Of a stretch of DNA of 64,000 nt, positions 1-7,737 are shown piece by piece. Positions within the stretch are counted from its first letter, which is position 1. Each line of letters starts with the position of its first letter. The position numbers were made by a program, and so were the translations under genes. The DNA comes from Anaerolineae bacterium (GTDB lineage Bacteria; Chloroflexota; Anaerolineae; CG2-30-64-16), in assembly GCA_040766655.1 (NCBI GenBank), contig JAXGQB010000020.1, forward strand, positions 28,327 through 92,326. The letters run 5' to 3'. The notes under the pieces were generated by a model. That model had not been told where the DNA came from and did no database searches. It was given only the letters and a program-made list of their open reading frames with translations.

Positions 1-241
1 CGCTTGAGCCGCCCTGCGCGGCCAGGTCCGCCGCCGCCACCTTGAAGATCTCACCTGCCATGATCAGATCGGACAGGTAGTACTCCCCGGTCTCGAAGCG
101 TTCGCCGATCAGGGTCATCCCCTCCCGGCACTCGTCCAGCAGCCGGCTCGGACTCGCGCCCGCGGCCAGTCCGGCCTTGACCAGGTCCTGGACCTTCATC
201 TCGTCCAGGTCCGCCATCGCCATCGTCAGTTCGCTCGCCAT
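1..241 (-). CDS. Corrinoid (B12-binding) protein, N-terminal part only; the gene runs off the left edge
   Basis: nt 1-241 is a near-copy of nt 3063-3303, the 5' half of the complete corrinoid protein gene at 2686-3303. It has the same ATG context (cat at 239-241), preceded on the minus strand by AAGGAGAAG. Confidence 0.8.
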   Translation of the reverse strand, partial: MASELTMAMADLDEMKVQDLVKAGLAAGASPSRLLDECREGMTLIGERFETGEYYLSDLIMAGEIFKVAAADLAAQGGSS

Positions 242-281
242 TGTGCTTCTCCTTAGGAAATGGGTGGTTCCACTGCCGTCA

Positions 282-332
282 AGACCTCCGAGGTCGCGCC
301 AACCTTCGGTTGGCCTGAGACGTCGGAGGTCT
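282..332. repeat. Nested palindromic intergenic element (AGACCTCCGA ... TCGGAGGTCT enclosing GCCAACC-TTC-GGTTGGC)
   Basis: A 10-bp outer inverted repeat (282-291 / 323-332) encloses a 7-bp inner hairpin (298-314). It lies in the gap between two minus-strand genes. Same sequence family as the tandem units at 46086-46189. Confidence 0.8.
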
Positions 333-350
333 TCTGGTTCGCTGTTTGCC

Positions 351-1487
351 TCAGGCGGCCTTGCCGCATTCGAGCGAGGCCGCGACGAACGCGGCCATAT
401 TCTCCGGCTTGGTGTTGATCGGCGCGTCGCAGCCGGGGCACAGCAGCAGCCCGGTCGCGCCGATATCGCGGACCAGGTCGGCCACGTATTTGTACACCTC
501 GTCGGGAGTGCCGGCCACCAGCAGCGAGGCCGGGACGTCGCCCATCATCGCCATGTTGTCCCGAAGCAGCTCGCGGAACTTGCGCACGTCGGTCATGCCG
601 TCCGGGTTGAGCACGCACTTCTTCGCGGGCAACTCCTGCAGGCGCACGAGGTCGCGCGTCCAGTCCTGGTCCCAGTGCAGCACCGGGGTGATGCCCCGCG
701 CGACCAACGCATCGACGATCTGGACGATGTAAGGCCACACAAAACGGTTCCAGAGCTTGGGCGAGAGCATCGCGCTCGCGGTCCGCCACCCGCCGACCCA
801 CACGCCAGCGCCGCCCTCGTTCGGCTCAGGGGCCGCCTTGATGCCCGCCAGCTCGACCTCGAGGATCGCCTGCATCGCGGCCTCGACCCGGTCGGGGATG
901 CGGTGCAAGTCGAAAATGAACTGCTGGAAGGAACGCCCGCCGCACAGCGGCTCGAAGGGCACGAGGGTGGGCGCCACCGCGCTGCACACGACCGCATAGC
1001 CGTGCTCGGCGCACTCCCGGAACATGCGCTCCCGGTTGGCGCCGTTCCAGGCCGCGATTGAGGCGAGCTCCGCCGGGTCCGCGATCCTCGGGATGAACGC
1101 CTTCTGCCAGGCCGGCCAACCCTGGGCCACGATGGCCTCGTAGTCGTCCTGGGTCATCAACTCCGCTTCCTGCACCTGCCACAGGCTGTCCTCAGGCAGC
1201 TCGCGGCCGGGAATGTTGACGTGCGACAGCCACCAGGGTGCAAGGTAGACCCCGCCCACGCCGCCGACGTTCATGATCGCGTCGAAACCGGGGAACCGGT
1301 CCATCGCGTCCATCTTGACCTGCCACGCGGCCTCGTTGTCCCTGCAGTAGTTGGACATCTTCATGCCCATGACGCGCGGGGCGAAGCCCTGGCCCATGAA
1401 TACGACCGGCGCCCGGTCCACCGGCTCGCAGGCCATCGCTTTCTTCACCCGAGCCAGGCGCTCCTGGTACGTTGCTTCGGCTTCCAT
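351..1487 (-). CDS. URO-D-fold (MtaA/CmuA-type) corrinoid methyltransferase, paralog B
   Basis: 378-aa ORF that aligns along its full length with the ORF at 1541-2677. Shared blocks include HWDQDWTRDL, NPDGMTD-RKF and LCPGCDAPINTKPENM-AFV. GGAG lies about 8 nt upstream of the ATG at 1487. Confidence 0.85.
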   Translation of the reverse strand: MEAEATYQERLARVKKAMACEPVDRAPVVFMGQGFAPRVMGMKMSNYCRDNEAAWQVKMDAMDRFPGFDAIMNVGGVGGVYLAPWWLSHVNIPGRELPEDSLWQVQEAELMTQDDYEAIVAQGWPAWQKAFIPRIADPAELASIAAWNGANRERMFRECAEHGYAVVCSAVAPTLVPFEPLCGGRSFQQFIFDLHRIPDRVEAAMQAILEVELAGIKAAPEPNEGGAGVWVGGWRTASAMLSPKLWNRFVWPYIVQIVDALVARGITPVLHWDQDWTRDLVRLQELPAKKCVLNPDGMTDVRKFRELLRDNMAMMGDVPASLLVAGTPDEVYKYVADLVRDIGATGLLLCPGCDAPINTKPENMAAFVAASLECGKAA

Positions 1488-1511
1488 TTGCGTGCTCCGT
1501 GACTGAAAACG

Positions 1512-1532
1512 GGGGCGGGGTGACCCCGCCCC
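1512..1532. other. Perfect 9-bp G+C stem-loop between the two methyltransferase genes
   Basis: GGGGCGGGG-tga-CCCCGCCCC sits in the 53-nt intercistronic gap. No U-tract follows, so it is more likely an RNA processing or stability element than a terminator. Confidence 0.6.
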
Positions 1533-1540
1533 TACCCATG

Positions 1541-2677
1541 TTATGCCATCTTGCCGAACTCGCGCGCGGCCGCGACGAAGGCCTCCATGTTCTCCGGTTT
1601 CGTGTTGATCGGCGCGTCACAGCCGGGGCAGAGGATCAGCCCGCGGCCCTCGAACAGCGCGACCTGGTCCTTCACGTAGGCGTACACGTCATCGGGCGTG
1701 CCCGCGGCAAGCACCGACGCGGGTATGTCGCCCAGCATCGCCATGTGGTCGCCGGCCAGTTCCTTGAACTTGCGCATGTCGGTCATGCCGTCCGGGTTCA
1801 TGATGCATTGCTTCGCCGGCAGATCCTTGAGCAGCCCGAGGTCGCGCGTCCAGTCCTGGTCCCAGTGCAGCACCGGCGTGACGCCTACGGAGAGGAGCGC
1901 TTCGACCTGCTCCACGATGTAGGGCCAGACGAACTTGTTCCACTGCCTCGGCGCCACCATGGCACTGGCCGAGCGCCACCCGCCGACCCATGTGCCGCGG
2001 ATGCCGCCGAACGGGGGCATGGCCTTGATCTTCGCGATCTCCGCTTCCTGGATCACGTCCATCACGGCCTTGATCTTGTCCGGCATGCGATACAGGTCGA
2101 GGAAGAACTTCTGCATCGATCGGCCGCCGCAGAGATACTCGAACGGGATGTTCACGGAGACCGGTGCGTCGCAGATGATGACGATGCCGGCGTCGCGGTA
2201 CGCCTGCTGGACGCCCGGCGTGATCTGCATCATCCAACCCATCGACTGGCCGAACTCCTCCGGGTCGATGACGCGGGGCAGGTAGCTGCCGAAGAAGGCG
2301 TTCCAGCCCATGCTGAGGATGGCGTCGTAGTCATCGACGGTCATGACCTCGGCCTCGCGCACCTGCCACAGGCTGTCCTCTGGGAGGTCGCGACCGGGCA
2401 CGCCGAGCCTGGACAGCCACATGGTCGTGAGGAGGGCGGTGATGCGGCCGGCCGGCGCGAGGTTGACGGCGTCTACGTCCAGGCGCTTCGACACCTCGAG
2501 GTTCACCCGCGCGGCGGACTCCGGGTTGGCGCAGTACTCAGCAATCGTCATGCCCGTCCAGCGCGGGGCAAAGGCCGTGCCCATGAATGCGACCGGCACC
2601 TGGTCGACCGGTTCGAGTGCGATGGCTTTCTTGATACGGTCATAGCGTTGCTGATACAGGGCTTCGTTGCTCATCAT
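1541..2677 (-). CDS. URO-D-fold (MtaA/CmuA-type) corrinoid methyltransferase, paralog A
   Basis: The ORF track gives 1541-2701. Alignment with the paralog and the GGGAGG RBS favour the tandem ATGs at 2677/2674 (MMSNEALYQQRYDRIKKAIALEPVD). C-terminal LCPGCDAPINTKPENMEAFV block. Confidence 0.85.
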   Translation of the reverse strand: MMSNEALYQQRYDRIKKAIALEPVDQVPVAFMGTAFAPRWTGMTIAEYCANPESAARVNLEVSKRLDVDAVNLAPAGRITALLTTMWLSRLGVPGRDLPEDSLWQVREAEVMTVDDYDAILSMGWNAFFGSYLPRVIDPEEFGQSMGWMMQITPGVQQAYRDAGIVIICDAPVSVNIPFEYLCGGRSMQKFFLDLYRMPDKIKAVMDVIQEAEIAKIKAMPPFGGIRGTWVGGWRSASAMVAPRQWNKFVWPYIVEQVEALLSVGVTPVLHWDQDWTRDLGLLKDLPAKQCIMNPDGMTDMRKFKELAGDHMAMLGDIPASVLAAGTPDDVYAYVKDQVALFEGRGLILCPGCDAPINTKPENMEAFVAAAREFGKMA

Positions 2678-2685
2678 GATCCTCC

Positions 2686-3303
2686 CTATGCCGCCAGCCA
2701 CTGGCCGGCCAAAGCCACCGCTGACTGTGCGTCCACGCCCAGTGCATCCGCGCCCACGTACTCCCGCACCTGCTCGCTCACCGGCCCCCCGCCGATCATC
2801 ACCTTGACCGGCAGCCCGGCGGCCTTCAGCGCATCCACCGTCTCCTTCATCGGGTCGAACGAGATCGTCAGCAGGCCCGACATGCCCACCACCGCCGCCC
2901 CCGTCTCCTTGACCGCCGCCACGAACTTCGCCGGCTCCACGTCCACGCCCAGATCCGTCACCTCGTAGTTCGCCCCGCGCAGCATCGTCACCACGATGTC
3001 CTTGCCGATGTCGTGGATGTCGCCCTTCACCGTGCCCATCACGACCTTGCCCTTCGTCGGGCCGCTTGAGCCGCCCTGCGCAGCCAGATCCGCGGCCGCA
3101 ACCTTGAAGATCTCACCCGCCATGATCAGGTCGGACAGGTAGTACTCCCCGGTTTCGAAGCGTTCGCCGATCAGGGTCATCCCCTCCCGGCACTCGTCCA
3201 GCAGCCGGCTCGGGCTCACGCCCGCAGCCAGTCCGGCCTTGACCAGGTCCTGGACCTTCATCTCGTCCAGGTCCGCCATCGCCATCGTCAGTTCGCTCGC
3301 CAT
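2686..3303 (-). CDS. Corrinoid protein (B12-binding_2 helical bundle plus Rossmann B12-binding domain)
   Basis: 205 aa with the DxHxxG motif as GDIHDIGKDIV, then GMSGLL and MIGGG. AAGGAGAAG RBS before the ATG at 3303. Confidence 0.9.
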   Translation of the reverse strand: MASELTMAMADLDEMKVQDLVKAGLAAGVSPSRLLDECREGMTLIGERFETGEYYLSDLIMAGEIFKVAAADLAAQGGSSGPTKGKVVMGTVKGDIHDIGKDIVVTMLRGANYEVTDLGVDVEPAKFVAAVKETGAAVVGMSGLLTISFDPMKETVDALKAAGLPVKVMIGGGPVSEQVREYVGADALGVDAQSAVALAGQWLAA

Positions 3304-3337
3304 TGTGCTTCTCCTTGGGAAGTGGGTTGGGTTGATG

Positions 3338-4033
3338 CTAGAGACTGCCGTGCTTGCCGTGGAACGGGCAGCGATCGGCCATGGTGCAATAGTCGCAGTG
3401 GGTGGCGCCGGGCACGCCCATGGGGCGGCGCCCGATACCGGCCATCAGCGAGAGGGACTTGATCGGCTTCATGAGGAGCGATTCCGTCAGCGACACGCCG
3501 ATCTGCGTCGCATCCAGCAGGTCGAAGATCACGGCCTGGTCCTTGACCGACCATTCGGATTCGCCGGGCGACAGGTAGGTGCTGATGTGCAGGCCCTGCG
3601 CTGCCGCGTCCATCTCCAGCTGGCGGTAGAACAGCTGGCTGAGTTGCCCCACGGCCAGGGAGCCCAGTTGGTCGAGCAGCATGCCCCGCACCGCCTCCCC
3701 GCGATCCCGGTACTCGTGGCTGCGCGCTGGGAGCTTCGGCCCGATCGTGCACACGCCGATGGCCAGCTGGTCCGCGCCGCCCATCACCGTGGTGACCGGC
3801 CCGTTGCCGATGCGCCGGCCGCCGGCCACGATCACCTGCTCGTGGCGCATCTCCTGCACGGGGAAGTAATTCCAGGCAACGGCCGGCTCGACCAGGTCTG
3901 CGGCCTCGCGGAAGGTTGCGTCGAAAATCTCGGCCATCCCCGGCCGGCGCAGCACCCGGGCGTAGGTGTGCCCGTAGTCCTGCATGAATCCGGCCTGGTC
4001 CAGGATGACGTGCCAATCACGGCTGGTCTGCAT
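3338..4033 (-). CDS. Stand-alone homolog of the methionine synthase (MetH) reactivation/AdoMet-binding domain, with a C-terminal Cys/His cluster
   Basis: 231 aa. Blocks VEPAVAWNYFPV, QLAIGVCTIGPKL and SPGESEWSVKDQAVIFDLL...GVSLTESLLMKPIKSLS follow the MetH activation-domain pattern. The tail is HCDYCTMADRCPFHGKH. GAGGGGA RBS. Confidence 0.75.
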   Translation of the reverse strand: MQTSRDWHVILDQAGFMQDYGHTYARVLRRPGMAEIFDATFREAADLVEPAVAWNYFPVQEMRHEQVIVAGGRRIGNGPVTTVMGGADQLAIGVCTIGPKLPARSHEYRDRGEAVRGMLLDQLGSLAVGQLSQLFYRQLEMDAAAQGLHISTYLSPGESEWSVKDQAVIFDLLDATQIGVSLTESLLMKPIKSLSLMAGIGRRPMGVPGATHCDYCTMADRCPFHGKHGSL

Positions 4034-4505
4034 GTTGTGTCCCCTCGTGATGATGGTGATGATGTGGGAGCGGCACGTCCTCGACGGTCGCGCCCCAACG
4101 TTCAGCGACCTTAGCGGCCGCGGCCGCGGTCAGCGCGGCCAGGCGTTCGGTCGGGAGGCCATAGACAAGGACGTTCAGCGTGATCGGCATCTCGGACAGG
4201 CCCGCCGGCGCCGCGCCGGTCACGGTCGCAGCATGCCGCGGGCTGACGACGCTCACGCGCAGGTATTCACCTTCATCGAACAACGCCAGCAGCTTGATAT
4301 GGCCGATCACGACATGGGCGGCGCGGCTGCGGCCGGCGCGGCTCTCATCTGCGCCGGCCTCCGCGCACATGCGGGCCACATCGGCAAGGTACTCGGAGAA
4401 CAAGGCGGACCACTCCCCGGGCGAGAGCGGCCGGGGCGCGGACCAGTGCTGTTGGCGCGCGTACGGCTCGAGGCCGGGCAGGCCCGCGTCGAGCTTGAGG
4501 CTCAT
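4017..4505 (-). CDS. CobW_C-like domain protein with a natural His6 stretch (detached C-terminal half of a COG0523 protein)
   Basis: Start taken at MSLKLD (ATG 4505), which overlaps the upstream stop as ATGA. IGHIKLLALFDEGEYLRVSVV resembles the CobW C-terminal domain. Ends in PLPHHHHHHEGTQH. Its last 17 nt overlap the next gene. Confidence 0.55.
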   Translation of the reverse strand: MSLKLDAGLPGLEPYARQQHWSAPRPLSPGEWSALFSEYLADVARMCAEAGADESRAGRSRAAHVVIGHIKLLALFDEGEYLRVSVVSPRHAATVTGAAPAGLSEMPITLNVLVYGLPTERLAALTAAAAAKVAERWGATVEDVPLPHHHHHHEGTQHADQP

Positions 4506-5092
4506 GGCAGCAGCCCCGCGACGAGGTCCGGCGGCAGCTCGCCGCCCAGCGCCAGGCAAAAGAGCGGCGCACGGTCGTTGATGGCCCGCGTGGCGGCTGT
4601 CGCCTCCGCCAGTTCCTCCGCAGTCGCGAGGTCAGCCTTGCTGATCACCAGGCAATCGCCCTGCCGGATCCCGGCGGCGATAAGCGGCTCCAGCACTTCC
4701 AGGAGCATTGGCAGCCGAAGGGGATCGAGCACCGTCACCCAGCGCACGCTTTCGAGCGGCCGGCCCCGATAGTACGGGAGTGCGGTGAGCACGTTCCTGG
4801 GGTCCGCCGCGCCGGACGGCTCAACGACGACCAGGTCAACGGCATACTCCGCGTCCAGCGTCTGCAGCGTGGAGACCAGGTCGGCCGTCAGGGTGCAGCA
4901 GATGCAGCCGTTGAACAGCTCCCAGACGTTGAGGTCGAGCTGCCGCATGAGTTGGTTGTCGATGCCGATCTCGCCGATCTCGTTGACGATCATGGCGGCC
5001 CTGCGCCCCCGCTCCTGCGCGGCGTGCGCCAGGCTGAGGATCAGCGTGGTCTTTCCCGACCCCAGGAATCCGTTGACTAGCAGCAAGTGCAT
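4502..5092 (-). CDS. COG0523 (CobW/YjiA-type) G3E GTPase, N-terminal GTPase domain only
   Basis: Contains the P-loop GFLGSGKTT, the CxCC metal motif GCICC, VVVEPSG and ISKADL. 196 aa, so it lacks the usual C-terminal domain. GAGGAA RBS. Confidence 0.85.
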   Translation of the reverse strand: MHLLLVNGFLGSGKTTLILSLAHAAQERGRRAAMIVNEIGEIGIDNQLMRQLDLNVWELFNGCICCTLTADLVSTLQTLDAEYAVDLVVVEPSGAADPRNVLTALPYYRGRPLESVRWVTVLDPLRLPMLLEVLEPLIAAGIRQGDCLVISKADLATAEELAEATAATRAINDRAPLFCLALGGELPPDLVAGLLP

Positions 5093-5123: not shown

Positions 5124-5152
5124 TTGACAACCCGATGTTGATACTATACACT
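5124..5152 (+). promoter_or_regulatory. Candidate sigma70-type promoter for the GntR/B12-binding operon
   Basis: TTGACA at 5124-5129, a 17-nt spacer, then TACACT at 5147-5152 (alternatively TATACA with a 15-nt spacer). About 110 nt upstream of the GTG at 5266. Confidence 0.45.
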
Positions 5153-5171
5153 TATATATATAAGATGTCAA
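5143..5171 (-). promoter_or_regulatory. Candidate sigma70-type promoter for the corrinoid methyltransferase operon
   Basis: On the minus strand: TTGACA (5171-5166), a 17-nt spacer, then TATAGT (5148-5143). It lies about 50 nt upstream of the ATG at 5092. Its -10 overlaps the -10 of the plus-strand promoter. Confidence 0.55.
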
Positions 5172-5265
5172 GTGTCATTTGGCACGAATCGCCCGTGAGT
5201 TTGACGGGCAAGGCGCTCGAGGGTAGACTTTTATCGGCCCTTCTTCCACACCGCCGAGGCACGCC

Positions 5266-6048
5266 GTGAGCACCGTTCGCGTTGAGGAACATCAAAGCAC
5301 GACCCGCCTGGACCGTGACTCGTACGAGCCGGCCTACGCGCAGATCGTGCGCATCCTGAGCGAGGAGATCGCTTCGGGGCGCTACCGCCCCGGCGATCAA
5401 CTGCCCTCGGAATCGCAGCTGTGCGCCCGCTTCGACGTCAGTTCCATGACCATCCGCCGCGCCATGAACATCATGGTGGACCGGGGGACGGTGATCGCAT
5501 CGCAGGGCAAGGGCGTGTTCGTGCGCGGCCTCGACATGGGCGAGGCCGCCTTCAAGCTGCGGGAGCGGAACGACGCGGGCGTGCGCGCGGCGTTTGCGGC
5601 CGCCCAGCGGGAGGTGCGCCTGCTTCAGGCCGCGATTTTGCCGGCAGACGACCGGGTGGCGCGCAAGCTGGACATTGAGCCGGACGGCAGAGTCATCTAT
5701 CTCCGCCGGCTGGTGCACATCGCGGGCGACCCGGTCATGTATCACCGCGAGTACCTCCGCTATGACCCACGCCAGCCGTCCGTCGAGGCCGAGTTGCAGA
5801 TCACCTCGCTGGAAGGGCTGTTCCGCGGGCAGGACGGGCAAGGGCTGCGCCGGGGCGATCTGACCGTCGAGGCGGTCGTGCTCACCGAAGAAGAGGCCGA
5901 GATCCTGCAGTGCCCCGCCGGCTCTCCCGCCTTCTGCCTGGAGCACATCTTCTACGATTTCGAGAACCGGCCGGTCGCCTGGGGCCGGTTCATCTGCCGC
6001 GCGGACCGCTACAGCCTGGTTGGCCGCATCGGCGCCGACATTTCGTGA
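5266..6048 (+). CDS. GntR-family transcriptional regulator, HutC subfamily (winged HTH plus UTRA domain)
   Basis: 260 aa. N-terminus YAQIVRILSEEIASGRYRPGDQLPSESQLCARFDVSSMTIRRAMNIMVDRGTVIASQGKGVFV. GTG start with GAGG upstream. Confidence 0.9.
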   Translation: MSTVRVEEHQSTTRLDRDSYEPAYAQIVRILSEEIASGRYRPGDQLPSESQLCARFDVSSMTIRRAMNIMVDRGTVIASQGKGVFVRGLDMGEAAFKLRERNDAGVRAAFAAAQREVRLLQAAILPADDRVARKLDIEPDGRVIYLRRLVHIAGDPVMYHREYLRYDPRQPSVEAELQITSLEGLFRGQDGQGLRRGDLTVEAVVLTEEEAEILQCPAGSPAFCLEHIFYDFENRPVAWGRFICRADRYSLVGRIGADIS

Positions 6049-6063
6049 ATGTGGAGCTGAAAG

Positions 6064-6741
6064 ATGCGCGATGAAGTGAGGAGGAAGCTCCGCGACGCGG
6101 TCGCCGATCTCGAGGAGAACGAGGTGCTGGCGACCGTGCGCGCCTGCATCGATGCGGGCGACGACCCGGCCGCGGCCATCGCGGCCTGCGAGGAAGGCAT
6201 GCGCCTGGTCGGCGAGCGCTACGAGCAGCACGAGTACTACCTGTCCGGCCTGATCATGGCAGGCGAGATCTTCCGCGAGGTGCTGGAGTTGGCCCAGCCC
6301 GCGCTGCAGGCGAGCCTGGCCGGTCACTCGAGCGGCAAGGTGTTGATCGGTACGGTCCAGGGCGACATCCACGACATCGGCAAGGCCATCTTGCAGATCG
6401 CGCTGCGCTCCTACGGCTTCGAGGTGGAGGACCTCGGCGTCGACGTGCCGCCGCAGGTCTTCGCCAGGCGGGCCGCCGAGTGGCAGCCCGACATCGTCGG
6501 ACTCTCCGGCCTTCTCTCCACGGCCTACGACACGATGCGCGAGACCGTCCAGCTCCTGCGCGCCACGGCTGGGGGCGGCGCGGCCGTGCCCATCCTCATC
6601 GGCGGCGGGCTGATCGACGAACGGGTGCGCGGCTACGTCGGCGCGGACTACGCGTGCAGCAACGCGCTGGAAGGCGTGCGCCTGTGCCAGCAACTCATGG
6701 ACGCGCGGCGCGCGGGTGACGCGGACGGCGCCGGCGAGTGA
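6064..6741 (+). CDS. Stand-alone B12-binding protein (corrinoid-protein architecture) co-transcribed with the GntR regulator
   Basis: 225 aa with a helical N-domain (GERYEQHEYYLSGLIMAGEIF), GDIHDIGKAIL (DxHxxG), GLSGLL and LIGGG. Starts 16 nt after the GntR stop and has a GGAG RBS. Confidence 0.85.
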   Translation: MRDEVRRKLRDAVADLEENEVLATVRACIDAGDDPAAAIAACEEGMRLVGERYEQHEYYLSGLIMAGEIFREVLELAQPALQASLAGHSSGKVLIGTVQGDIHDIGKAILQIALRSYGFEVEDLGVDVPPQVFARRAAEWQPDIVGLSGLLSTAYDTMRETVQLLRATAGGGAAVPILIGGGLIDERVRGYVGADYACSNALEGVRLCQQLMDARRAGDADGAGE

Positions 6742-6873
6742 ACGACACGGCAGAACTGACGATCCATGGTACGATAGGGCCGGACCGAGATGGCCGGTGG
6801 GCCCTCGCGCGCTGTGCGCGACGGACCGCGCGCCAGCCACCCATCCTCAGGGCGAACCCCAGGGTGAGACACC

Positions 6874-7737
6874 ATGCGCAGCGAACAGACCATGCTCGAC
6901 CTGATCCTGGACACGGCCCGGGGCGATGACCGCATCCGGGCCGCGATCATGAACGGCTCGCGCACAAACCCAAACGCGCCGCGCGACCCCTTCCAGGATT
7001 TCGACATCGTCTATCTCGTCACCGACGTCGCGCCGTTCAGGCATAACCTCGCCTGGATCGGGCGTTTTGGGGAATTGATGATCCTGCAGATGCCCGACGA
7101 GATGGGGAGCCCGCCGCCCCTCCACGAGCACCGCTTCTGCTATCTCATGCAGTTCACCGACGGCAACCGCATCGACCTGAGCGTCGTCGAGGCCGCCGTG
7201 CTGCCCGAGCTACCGCGCGACAGCCTCAGCGTGCTCCTGCTGGACAAGGACGGGATCGTCCCACCCTTCCCCCCGCCGCACGAGGGTGATTACCTGCCCG
7301 AGCCGCCCACGATGAAGGCGTTCGCGGACTGCTGCAACGAGTTCTGGTGGGTGTGCCCTTACGTGGCCAAGGGGCTGTGGCGCGGCGAGCTCACCTATGC
7401 CCGCCACATGCTTGACGAAGCCGTGCGCGCGGAGCTCATGCAGATGCTGGAGTGGCACGTGGGCGCGCAGACCGGGTTCTCACGCAGCCCAGGCAAGCTC
7501 GGGAAGTACCTCCAGCGCTACCTGGCGCCGGAGTTGTGGGATCTGCTGCGCGCGACCTATACCGACGCAGAACACACCTGGGACGCGCTGTTCGCCATGG
7601 GCGAGCTATTTCGTAGCGCGGCACGGGGTGTCGCAGATCACTTCGGCTTCGACTACCCGCAGGGCGACGACGACCGCGTGACCGCACACCTGCGGCACGT
7701 GCGGTCGCTCCCTCGCGACGCACAGGAGATCTACTGA
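6874..7737 (+). CDS. aadK: Aminoglycoside 6-adenylyltransferase, ANT(6)/AadK family
   Basis: 287 aa. MRSEQTMLDLILDTA..DDRIRAAIMNGSRTNPNAPRDPFQDFDIVYLVTDV and CCNEFWWV..YVAKGLWRGEL match the B. subtilis AadK pattern over the whole length. Confidence 0.85.
   Translation: MRSEQTMLDLILDTARGDDRIRAAIMNGSRTNPNAPRDPFQDFDIVYLVTDVAPFRHNLAWIGRFGELMILQMPDEMGSPPPLHEHRFCYLMQFTDGNRIDLSVVEAAVLPELPRDSLSVLLLDKDGIVPPFPPPHEGDYLPEPPTMKAFADCCNEFWWVCPYVAKGLWRGELTYARHMLDEAVRAELMQMLEWHVGAQTGFSRSPGKLGKYLQRYLAPELWDLLRATYTDAEHTWDALFAMGELFRSAARGVADHFGFDYPQGDDDRVTAHLRHVRSLPRDAQEIY

Follow-up and report, generated by a model that had tools for sequence, protein, structure and literature searches.

Corrinoid-dependent methyltransferases drive the removal of methyl groups from lignin-derived aromatics, methylamines and halomethanes, and the installation and repair of their cofactors and metal sites are known only in outline. 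Among the closest described enzymes is CdmB, which serves Acetobacterium as methyltransferase I (MT I) of its chloromethane system; its authors call it close kin of the O-demethylases (PMC13222342). In Methanosarcina, genes of COG0523 subfamily 13 lie beside Zn-dependent mtaA/mtaB, mtaC and ramM, and in Clostridium botulinum and Desulfitobacterium hafniense COG0523 genes adjoin genes for corrinoid methyltransferases (Haas et al., 2009, PMC2770081); the linkage between COG0523 and corrinoid methyltransferases is known from that publication. DUF1638 has been tied, genetically and phylogenetically, to RamA-like repair (Price et al., 2018, PMC5764234). Here we describe a locus in which relatives of all these genes meet. 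It lies in a 64,000-nucleotide stretch of DNA from an Anaerolineae bacterium (the window, G000:C13:28327-92326), on a contig of 94.8 kb (C13) that runs on for 28 kb leftward, in an assembly of 88% completeness. The nearest relatives of this DNA are metagenome-assembled genomes of uncultured Anaerolineales.

The locus is a ten-gene, single-promoter, corrinoid-dependent operon of the O-demethylase type, and it joins two accessory modules that are otherwise found apart, namely a split COG0523 protein that goes with MT I enzymes carrying an H-x-D...C triad, and an activation-domain-like protein associated with the RACE activases. An original prediction, made from the letters of the window, had recognized seven minus-strand genes; all seven are present, with domains assigned by Pfam except for the gene that follows the GTPase, which has no match, and the TM0269-like gene, whose match is below the cut-off. 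The operon nevertheless continues past the left window edge. Its genes, in transcription order, are as follows.

4502 to 5092, minus strand: short COG0523/G3E GTPase of 196 amino acids, GTPase domain only (PF02492, 135 bits)
4017 to 4505, minus strand: GTPase partner of 162 amino acids from the ATG at 4505, predicted variant C-domain with a His6 tail (from fusions and fold)
3338 to 4033, minus strand: TM0269-like protein of 231 amino acids with a predicted MetH-activation fold (family profile and AlphaFold2 model)
2686 to 3303, minus strand: corrinoid protein CP1, 205 amino acids (PF02607 and PF02310; DIHDIG at residue 95)
1541 to 2701, minus strand: MT I paralogue a, URO-D fold (PF01208), candidate triad H279-x-D281...C361
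351 to 1487, minus strand: MT I paralogue b, URO-D fold (PF01208), with the H-x-D...C triad of paralogue a, to which it is 54% identical
1 to 241, minus strand: 5' part of corrinoid protein CP2 (B12-binding_2); the complete gene is L009:17950-18567
L009:16808-17965, minus strand, left of the window: MT I paralogue c, URO-D
L009:16033-16746, minus strand, left of the window: DUF1638 gene
L009:15215-16033, minus strand, left of the window: pterin-binding methyltransferase II (MT II; PF00809)

The junctions between the first seven genes, again in transcription order, measure -4, -17, +34, -16, +53 and +109 nt. The three URO-D proteins matched PF01208 at 95-103 bits and share 51-56% mutual identity; the solved structure nearest to MT I a is CdmB (9RUI; E 6e-20), with 75 bits as compared to 23 bits for MtaA. 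CP1 combines a helical cap (PF02607) with a Rossmann B12 domain (PF02310) bearing the DxHxxG motif, and it matched MtgC/MtbC-type corrinoid proteins in NCBIfam, every one of them under the curated cut-offs. The MT II product matched PDB entries 4O0Q/4O1E, which we take to be the O-demethylase MT II of D. hafniense, with an E value of 5e-76, and MeTr at about 1e-50 (3e-52 to 1e-48). By these homologies the core has the MT I/corrinoid protein/MT II layout that would carry methyl groups to tetrahydrofolate, which bears out the O-demethylase-type layout suggested from the window. The accompanying statement that no substrate methyltransferase of the MttB, MtaB or MtmB type was visible leaves out of account that in such systems MT I is itself a URO-D protein; MT II lies just outside the window. 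The genome as a whole encodes at least five corrinoid methyltransferase clusters and at least 13 corrinoid-protein genes.

CP1 and CP2 both carry DIHDIG and differ at 2 of 205 residues (99% identity), while the MT I paralogues flanking them are only 51-56% identical, which suggests a recent gene conversion or a duplication restricted to the corrinoid genes.

The split GTPase and the candidate metal site of MT I

The GTPase carries the motifs GFLGSGKT (P-loop), CICC (CxCC), EPSG (ExSG) and SKAD (NKxD type). It has no second copy in the genome, and its family, a large one, consists of short proteins with a cobW domain and nothing else; in 400 genomes drawn evenly from the phylum, only full-length COG0523 proteins were present, with at most 41% identity. 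Its stop codon overlaps the start codon of the partner gene (ATGA). The partner family comprises 141 clusters at 50% identity, nearly all of them stand-alone, with four fused behind a cobW domain. GHIK and LNVLVYG are invariant throughout it, and His-rich tails are common.

No Pfam match was obtained for the partner protein, CobW_C (PF07683) included. Homology to the canonical CobW_C domain was rejected at the sequence level, as hhalign against the C-domains of 28 Chloroflexota COG0523 proteins also returned a probability of 0.3%. The AlphaFold2 model of the partner (pLDDT 90) gave weak matches to YjiA in a Foldseek search of the PDB (E 3-6e-3), and VIA-align wide retrieved generic ferredoxin-like folds with Z below 8. 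In an Atlas fold search, the model superposed on the non-GTPase part of cobW proteins of about 350 amino acids from Methanobacteriota, Bacillota, Planctomycetota and Acidobacteriota (TM-score 0.62-0.72; rmsd 2.7-3.0 over 122-138 residues). Taken together, the four fusions and the Atlas match lead us to regard the GTPase and its partner as a split COG0523 protein with a variant C-domain, as modelled. The description of 4017-4505 as a detached C-domain thus stands as far as fusion and fold are concerned, and fails as far as similarity to PF07683 or to a CobW_C profile is implied.

The setting of the GTPase is conserved. All six sampled homologues (61-80% identity), which came from metagenomic contigs, head the same type of operon, in which the GTPase gene is followed by an overlapping small open reading frame without Pfam match, a corrinoid-protein gene and one or two URO-D genes; most of these modules also include DUF1638, Pterin_bind or both. 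One of the six sister operons (L109) includes a RACE gene itself, three adjoin a divergent GntR/B12-binding pair, and none has the activation-like gene. Recurrence of both accessory families with corrinoid operons in relatives, which the original prediction had put forward as one of its tests, was found for the GTPase in six of six loci and for the activation-like gene in 28 of 48.

What the GTPase pair tracks is a candidate metal site in MT I, not the absence of RACE. The residues H279-x-D281...C361 are invariant among the MT I proteins of the operon and align to the HxC...C positions of MtaA (4AY7); zinc-free CdmB is devoid of this triad. It occurs in 9/9 URO-D proteins of GTPase-headed operons and in 0/14 from loci without the GTPase, a count that compares essentially two MT I clades, such that the 23 cases are not independent. 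The 14 proteins without the triad, among them those of the genome's own C74 operon, have Y/F-x-E in its place and V, A, L or T instead of the Cys. This distribution suggests that the GTPase pair inserts a metal into MT I, and the CxCC motif and His-rich tails of the pair fit such a role. The new element here is a candidate client: the split COG0523 protein, a putative chaperone, travels only with MT I that carries H-x-D...C, which proposes this MT I as a client for the COG0523 subfamily reported in 2009.

The pair could instead act on the cobamide side, as a MeaB/CobW-like chaperone that loads cobamide, or cobalt, into the corrinoid proteins. Its G3E relatives include MeaB, which serves methylmalonyl-CoA mutase, and CobW, which serves cobalt (see PMC7895991), and the pair always stands directly before the corrinoid-protein gene. 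We nonetheless consider this role unlikely, since the CxCC motif and the His-rich tail indicate a free metal ion, such a GTPase is missing from the other corrinoid operons of the genome, which hold at least 11 more corrinoid-protein genes, and the GTPase tracks the metal triad of MT I.

The TM0269-like protein and the RACE activases

The product of 3338-4033 scored 22.8 bits against PF02965, where the gathering threshold is 25, and only over its C-terminal 30 residues; some members of its family pass the threshold in precomputed data. A profile of the family, which counts about 65 clusters of proteins of roughly 230 amino acids, matched TM0269 (PDB 1J6R) over residues 33-200 (E=3e-8), and the AlphaFold2 model (pLDDT 86) matched the same structure with a Foldseek E value of 2e-12 and a TM-score of 0.79. 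The next matches were the MetH reactivation domains of T. thermophilus, E. coli and human, all with E values from 2e-12 to 1e-4. The model thus confirms the predicted MetH activation-domain fold.

RxxxGY is the S-adenosylmethionine (AdoMet)-binding motif of the MetH-activation enzyme class (PMC9508554). TM0269 reads R-I-S-P-G-Y at this position, as opposed to x-L-S-P-G-E in the family, in which the Glu is nearly invariant. The family has gained its own pattern of Cys residues, with C213, C216 and C222 (a CxxCx5C tail) invariant and C95 nearly so. Of the earlier description as a stand-alone MetH activation-domain homolog with a Cys/His tail, the fold and the conserved Cys residues were borne out; the match to PF02965 stays below the cut-off, and the AdoMet motif is gone.

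The relation of this family to RACE was followed in 48 loci from Chloroflexota, Spirochaetota and Gaiellales that share the activation-like gene. A complete RACE gene lies directly upstream on the same strand, at a gap of at most 200 nt, in 16/48, and within 5 kb in any orientation in 19/48; a corrinoid-protein gene together with a URO-D gene occurs within 6 kb in 28/48. Only the three closest relatives (L023, L024 and L026) have the COG0523 GTPase and its partner nearby (3/48). L026 is the nearest relative for which a long contig is available; there, a convergent RACE gene stands directly after the MT II gene. Five further genomes in which the activation-like gene does not adjoin RACE were searched, and all five had RACE genes, two to four each.

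A search with PF14574 found no RACE gene in the operon or elsewhere on contig C13, and three complete RACE genes on contigs C9, C74 and C15 of the same genome, all with Fer2, middle and ASKHA domains. The remark that no activase was visible is hence right for the operon and for the whole contig, including the part to the left of the window, and wrong for the genome. In A. dehalogenans, activases are known to act in trans, from genes that lie apart from those of the methyltransferases (PMC13222342); a missing activase gene in an operon is no evidence for a different repair chemistry. Nor did the loci and genomes with the accessory genes turn out to go without RACE, which was found in the present genome, in the five others, next to the gene in 16 of the 48 loci and within L109. 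From the synteny with RACE, the presence of RACE in genomes where the genes are not adjacent and the loss of RxxxGY, we conclude that, on sequence grounds, the family appears to accompany RACE rather than to replace it, and that canonical AdoMet binding has probably been lost.

A non-canonical role as methyl donor is one way to read the protein. It would use AdoMet or another methyl donor to trap the Co(I) made by RACE as methyl-Co(III), thereby coupling ATP-driven reduction to reductive methylation. The fold, the conserved SPGESEW loop at the place where MetH presents AdoMet, and the tight order of the RACE and activation-like genes would suit such an enzyme; both signature residues of RxxxGY, however, are gone. 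In three-component systems, moreover, the substrate normally traps Co(I) through MT I, which would make an extra donor needless, and we view this role as doubtful. We also considered that the Cys-tailed protein might supply an Fe-S domain lacking in RACE, and this was ruled out, as 8/8 RACE proteins carry their own Fer2 domain. A somewhat better prospect, which we offer tentatively, is that the four-Cys TM0269-like protein may be a hitherto unrecognized third component of ATP-dependent corrinoid repair, a metal or Fe-S adaptor that would hold the B12 domain of the corrinoid protein in a cap-off, His-off state, in the manner of the MetH activation domain, and so let RACE reduce Co(II).

Our literature search found no report of O-demethylase or other corrinoid systems with a partner of the activation-domain kind, and the studies of RamA/RACo with DUF1638 did not come upon one (no PF02965 member in P. 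inhibens; PMC5764234). A Cys-tailed activation-domain family that has lost its AdoMet motif and partners RACE thus looks undescribed. The family is widespread and may represent a partner so far missing from the picture of B12 repair.

Several side observations concern these two families. The neighbourhood of the activation-like gene varies among close relatives of 71-79% identity (L025, L027 and L028 compared with L026 and the window): it was seen as an orphan among glycosyltransferase and MFS genes, tail-to-tail with RACE, and inside the operon. Such mobility fits a trans-acting general factor. A paralogue on contig C2 (L072:7594-8310, equal to G000:C2:228593-229309; 26% identity) reaches 25.8 bits with PF02965, has M-N-P-G-S where RxxxGY would stand, and shows a Cys pattern of VCT plus CxxCx4C. 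It lies directly upstream of methylmalonyl-CoA mutase in a propionyl-CoA carboxylase/epimerase/mutase cluster. An adenosylcobalamin enzyme is an unexpected neighbour for this gene, and its position hints that the activation-like clade services B12 domains more generally. Two RACE genes of related Anaerolineales, G401:C26:34446-35180 in the L025 genome and G402:C60:19482-20240 in the L027 genome, each contain a single in-frame TAG; these could be pseudogenes, sequencing errors or recoded codons.

Proposed pathway and its alternatives

We infer the substrate, the metal, the direction of flux and all protein-protein roles from the gene content, folds, motifs and synteny statistics given above. 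The explanation that we consider probable is a demethylation operon that feeds tetrahydrofolate and carries, beside the RACE encoded elsewhere, its own genes for maturation and repair. Each of the three MT I paralogues would demethylate a related substrate, most likely a methoxylated aromatic, and pass the methyl group to Co(I) of the two near-identical corrinoid proteins, from which the pterin-binding MT II would hand it on to tetrahydrofolate. The GTPase and its His-tailed partner would serve as a GTP-dependent metallochaperone that loads the H-x-D...C site of this MT I clade, probably with zinc. Co(II) would be re-reduced by one of the three RACE proteins, whose genes act in trans, with the help of DUF1638 and of the TM0269-like protein, which most likely docks on the B12 domain in the manner of the MetH activation domain. 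In the sister operon L075 a FolD gene follows the MT II gene, and beside other sister operons lie LigB, Pirin, MFS, CoA-ligase and ABC binding-protein genes; these neighbours fit a methoxyaromatic demethylation that feeds one-carbon oxidation.

A flux in the opposite direction would make the URO-D proteins MtaA-like methylcobamide:thiol methyltransferases that move methyl groups from methyl-tetrahydrofolate to thiol acceptors. The triad does align with the HxC...C of MtaA, a thiol-methylating enzyme, and the best NCBIfam matches of the URO-D proteins are MtaA/CmuA-type models. Those matches score 47-53 bits, far under the cut-offs of 235-244, MT I is much closer to CdmB than to MtaA in bit score, and FolD follows MT II in L075. 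Several MT I paralogues sharing a single MT II is, furthermore, an arrangement known from multi-substrate demethylases. We therefore hold the reverse flux to be quite improbable.

Least probable of all is the RACE-independent repair put forward in the original prediction. Spelled out, a ferredoxin or flavodoxin would reduce the cobalt, and the activation-domain protein, assisted by the GTPase, would then methylate Co(I) anew with AdoMet as the donor, in the way of MetH and TM0269. This model can draw on the MetH activation fold, best matched by TM0269, on the lack of a RACE gene in the operon and contig and on the retention of GTPase, partner and activation-like gene together in L023, L024 and L026, and it is countered by the family-wide loss of RxxxGY with a nearly invariant Glu for the Tyr, by the synteny with RACE and its presence in every genome checked, by the RACE genes directly after the L026 operon and within L109, by DUF1638 as part of the operon, by the absence of the activation-like gene from the six sister GTPase operons and by the tracking of the MT I metal site by the GTPase.

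Some points weigh against the demethylation pathway with RACE acting in trans. The guess of a methoxyaromatic substrate rests only on neighbours in other genomes, and the MtaA positions that we aligned with the triad are presumably its Zn ligands. The triad count sets two clades side by side, and COG0523 proteins can handle cobalt too, as CobW does. The RACE gene that stands next to the L026 operon has no closer counterpart in this genome than one of only about 50% identity, and the true partner may for that reason be missing from the incomplete assembly. Lastly, 13/48 of the activation-like loci have no corrinoid-system gene at all within 6 kb, and the TM0269-like protein may accordingly act more generally.

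Surroundings of the operon and comparison with known systems

The remaining features of the locus lie upstream of the GTPase gene and between the methyltransferase genes.

5143 to 5171, minus strand: sigma-70-type promoter TTGACA-17-TATAGT, 11/12 consensus matches, in an AT-rich island
About 1512 to 1535, minus strand: GC-rich hairpin between MT I a and b, nine GC pairs and a weak T tract, a terminator-like site
280 to 333, minus strand: stable intergenic hairpin between MT I b and CP2 (-38.7 kcal/mol, z = -3.8)
5266 to 6048, plus strand: GntR/UTRA regulator, divergent from the operon
6064 to 6741, plus strand: stand-alone B12-binding protein, after GntR/UTRA and likewise divergent from the operon

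Four promoter-like sites were found where 0.7 would be expected, and that of the operon faces the one that drives the divergent GntR gene. The open reading frame at 5152-6840 on the minus strand (562 amino acids) was rejected as a spurious high-GC shadow frame, having no Pfam match and facing the GntR and B12-binding genes on the plus strand. The GntR/UTRA gene and the B12-binding gene are probably the regulatory pair of the operon. The same pair adjoins three corrinoid operons in the genome, each time divergently (that of the window, G000:C74:51997-53393 and G000:C53:5622-7018), and it also stands beside the operons of relatives (L024, L026, L079 and two JGI contigs). Its B12-binding proteins carry DIHDIG and are 47-55% identical to the corrinoid proteins of the operon. 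This looks like a conserved B12-sensing regulatory pair. A full-length homologue of ANT(6)-type streptomycin adenylyltransferase (6874-7737, plus strand; PF04439, E 5e-111) adjoins the pair.

The hairpin at 280-333 belongs to a repeat family of about 50 nt that is spread over the genome, with over 20 copies outside this contig (80-92% identity). For the hairpin that separates MT I a from MT I b, exact copies of 24 nt occur on contigs C75 and C56. The two may be elements resembling repetitive extragenic palindromes that act as partial terminators or mRNA stabilizers. Elsewhere in the genome, contig C74 encodes two homologues of the monomethylamine methyltransferase family MtmB (L071:1145-2689 and L071:4135-5556; G000:C74:163-168 kb), which lie beside two corrinoid-protein genes and about 10 kb from a RACE gene. 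As neither frame has an internal stop, this Chloroflexota genome seems to hold MtmB relatives that do without pyrrolysine.

With the O-demethylase-type systems, represented by Odm and Cdm of Acetobacterium dehalogenans, those of Desulfitobacterium hafniense and MtvABC of Moorella, the operon has in common a URO-D MT I, a corrinoid protein with DxHxxG and a pterin-binding MT II, and like A. dehalogenans its host encodes the activase elsewhere in the genome. It differs from them in combining three MT I genes and two near-identical corrinoid-protein genes in one operon, in the distance of its MT I from characterized ones (E 6e-20 to CdmB), in the additional COG0523, TM0269-like and DUF1638 genes and in its Chloroflexota host. 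COG0523 subfamily 13 likewise consists of G3E GTPases with CxCC that occur in corrinoid methyltransferase clusters and co-occur with RamA-type activases, a comparison that rests on genomic context and on the fold match to archaeal cobW proteins of about 350 amino acids; here, by contrast, two translationally coupled genes are involved, and the C-domain falls outside PF07683.

TM0269 of Thermotoga maritima (1J6R), a stand-alone MetH reactivation protein, has the same fold and size and is likewise a stand-alone gene beside genes for B12 methyltransferases. The present protein departs from it in having x-L-S-P-G-E for RxxxGY, along with a CxxCx5C tail and Cys95, and in its partner genes, which are RACE, corrinoid-protein and URO-D genes, as against the MetH core in the case of TM0269. 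Finally, the combination of DUF1638 with a genomic RACE matches the co-occurrence published for systems with RamA/RACo and DUF1638 (PMC5764234; MtgBCD of R. pomeroyi, PMC12478193), from which the operon is set apart by a RACE encoded outside it and by an additional, activation-domain-like partner.

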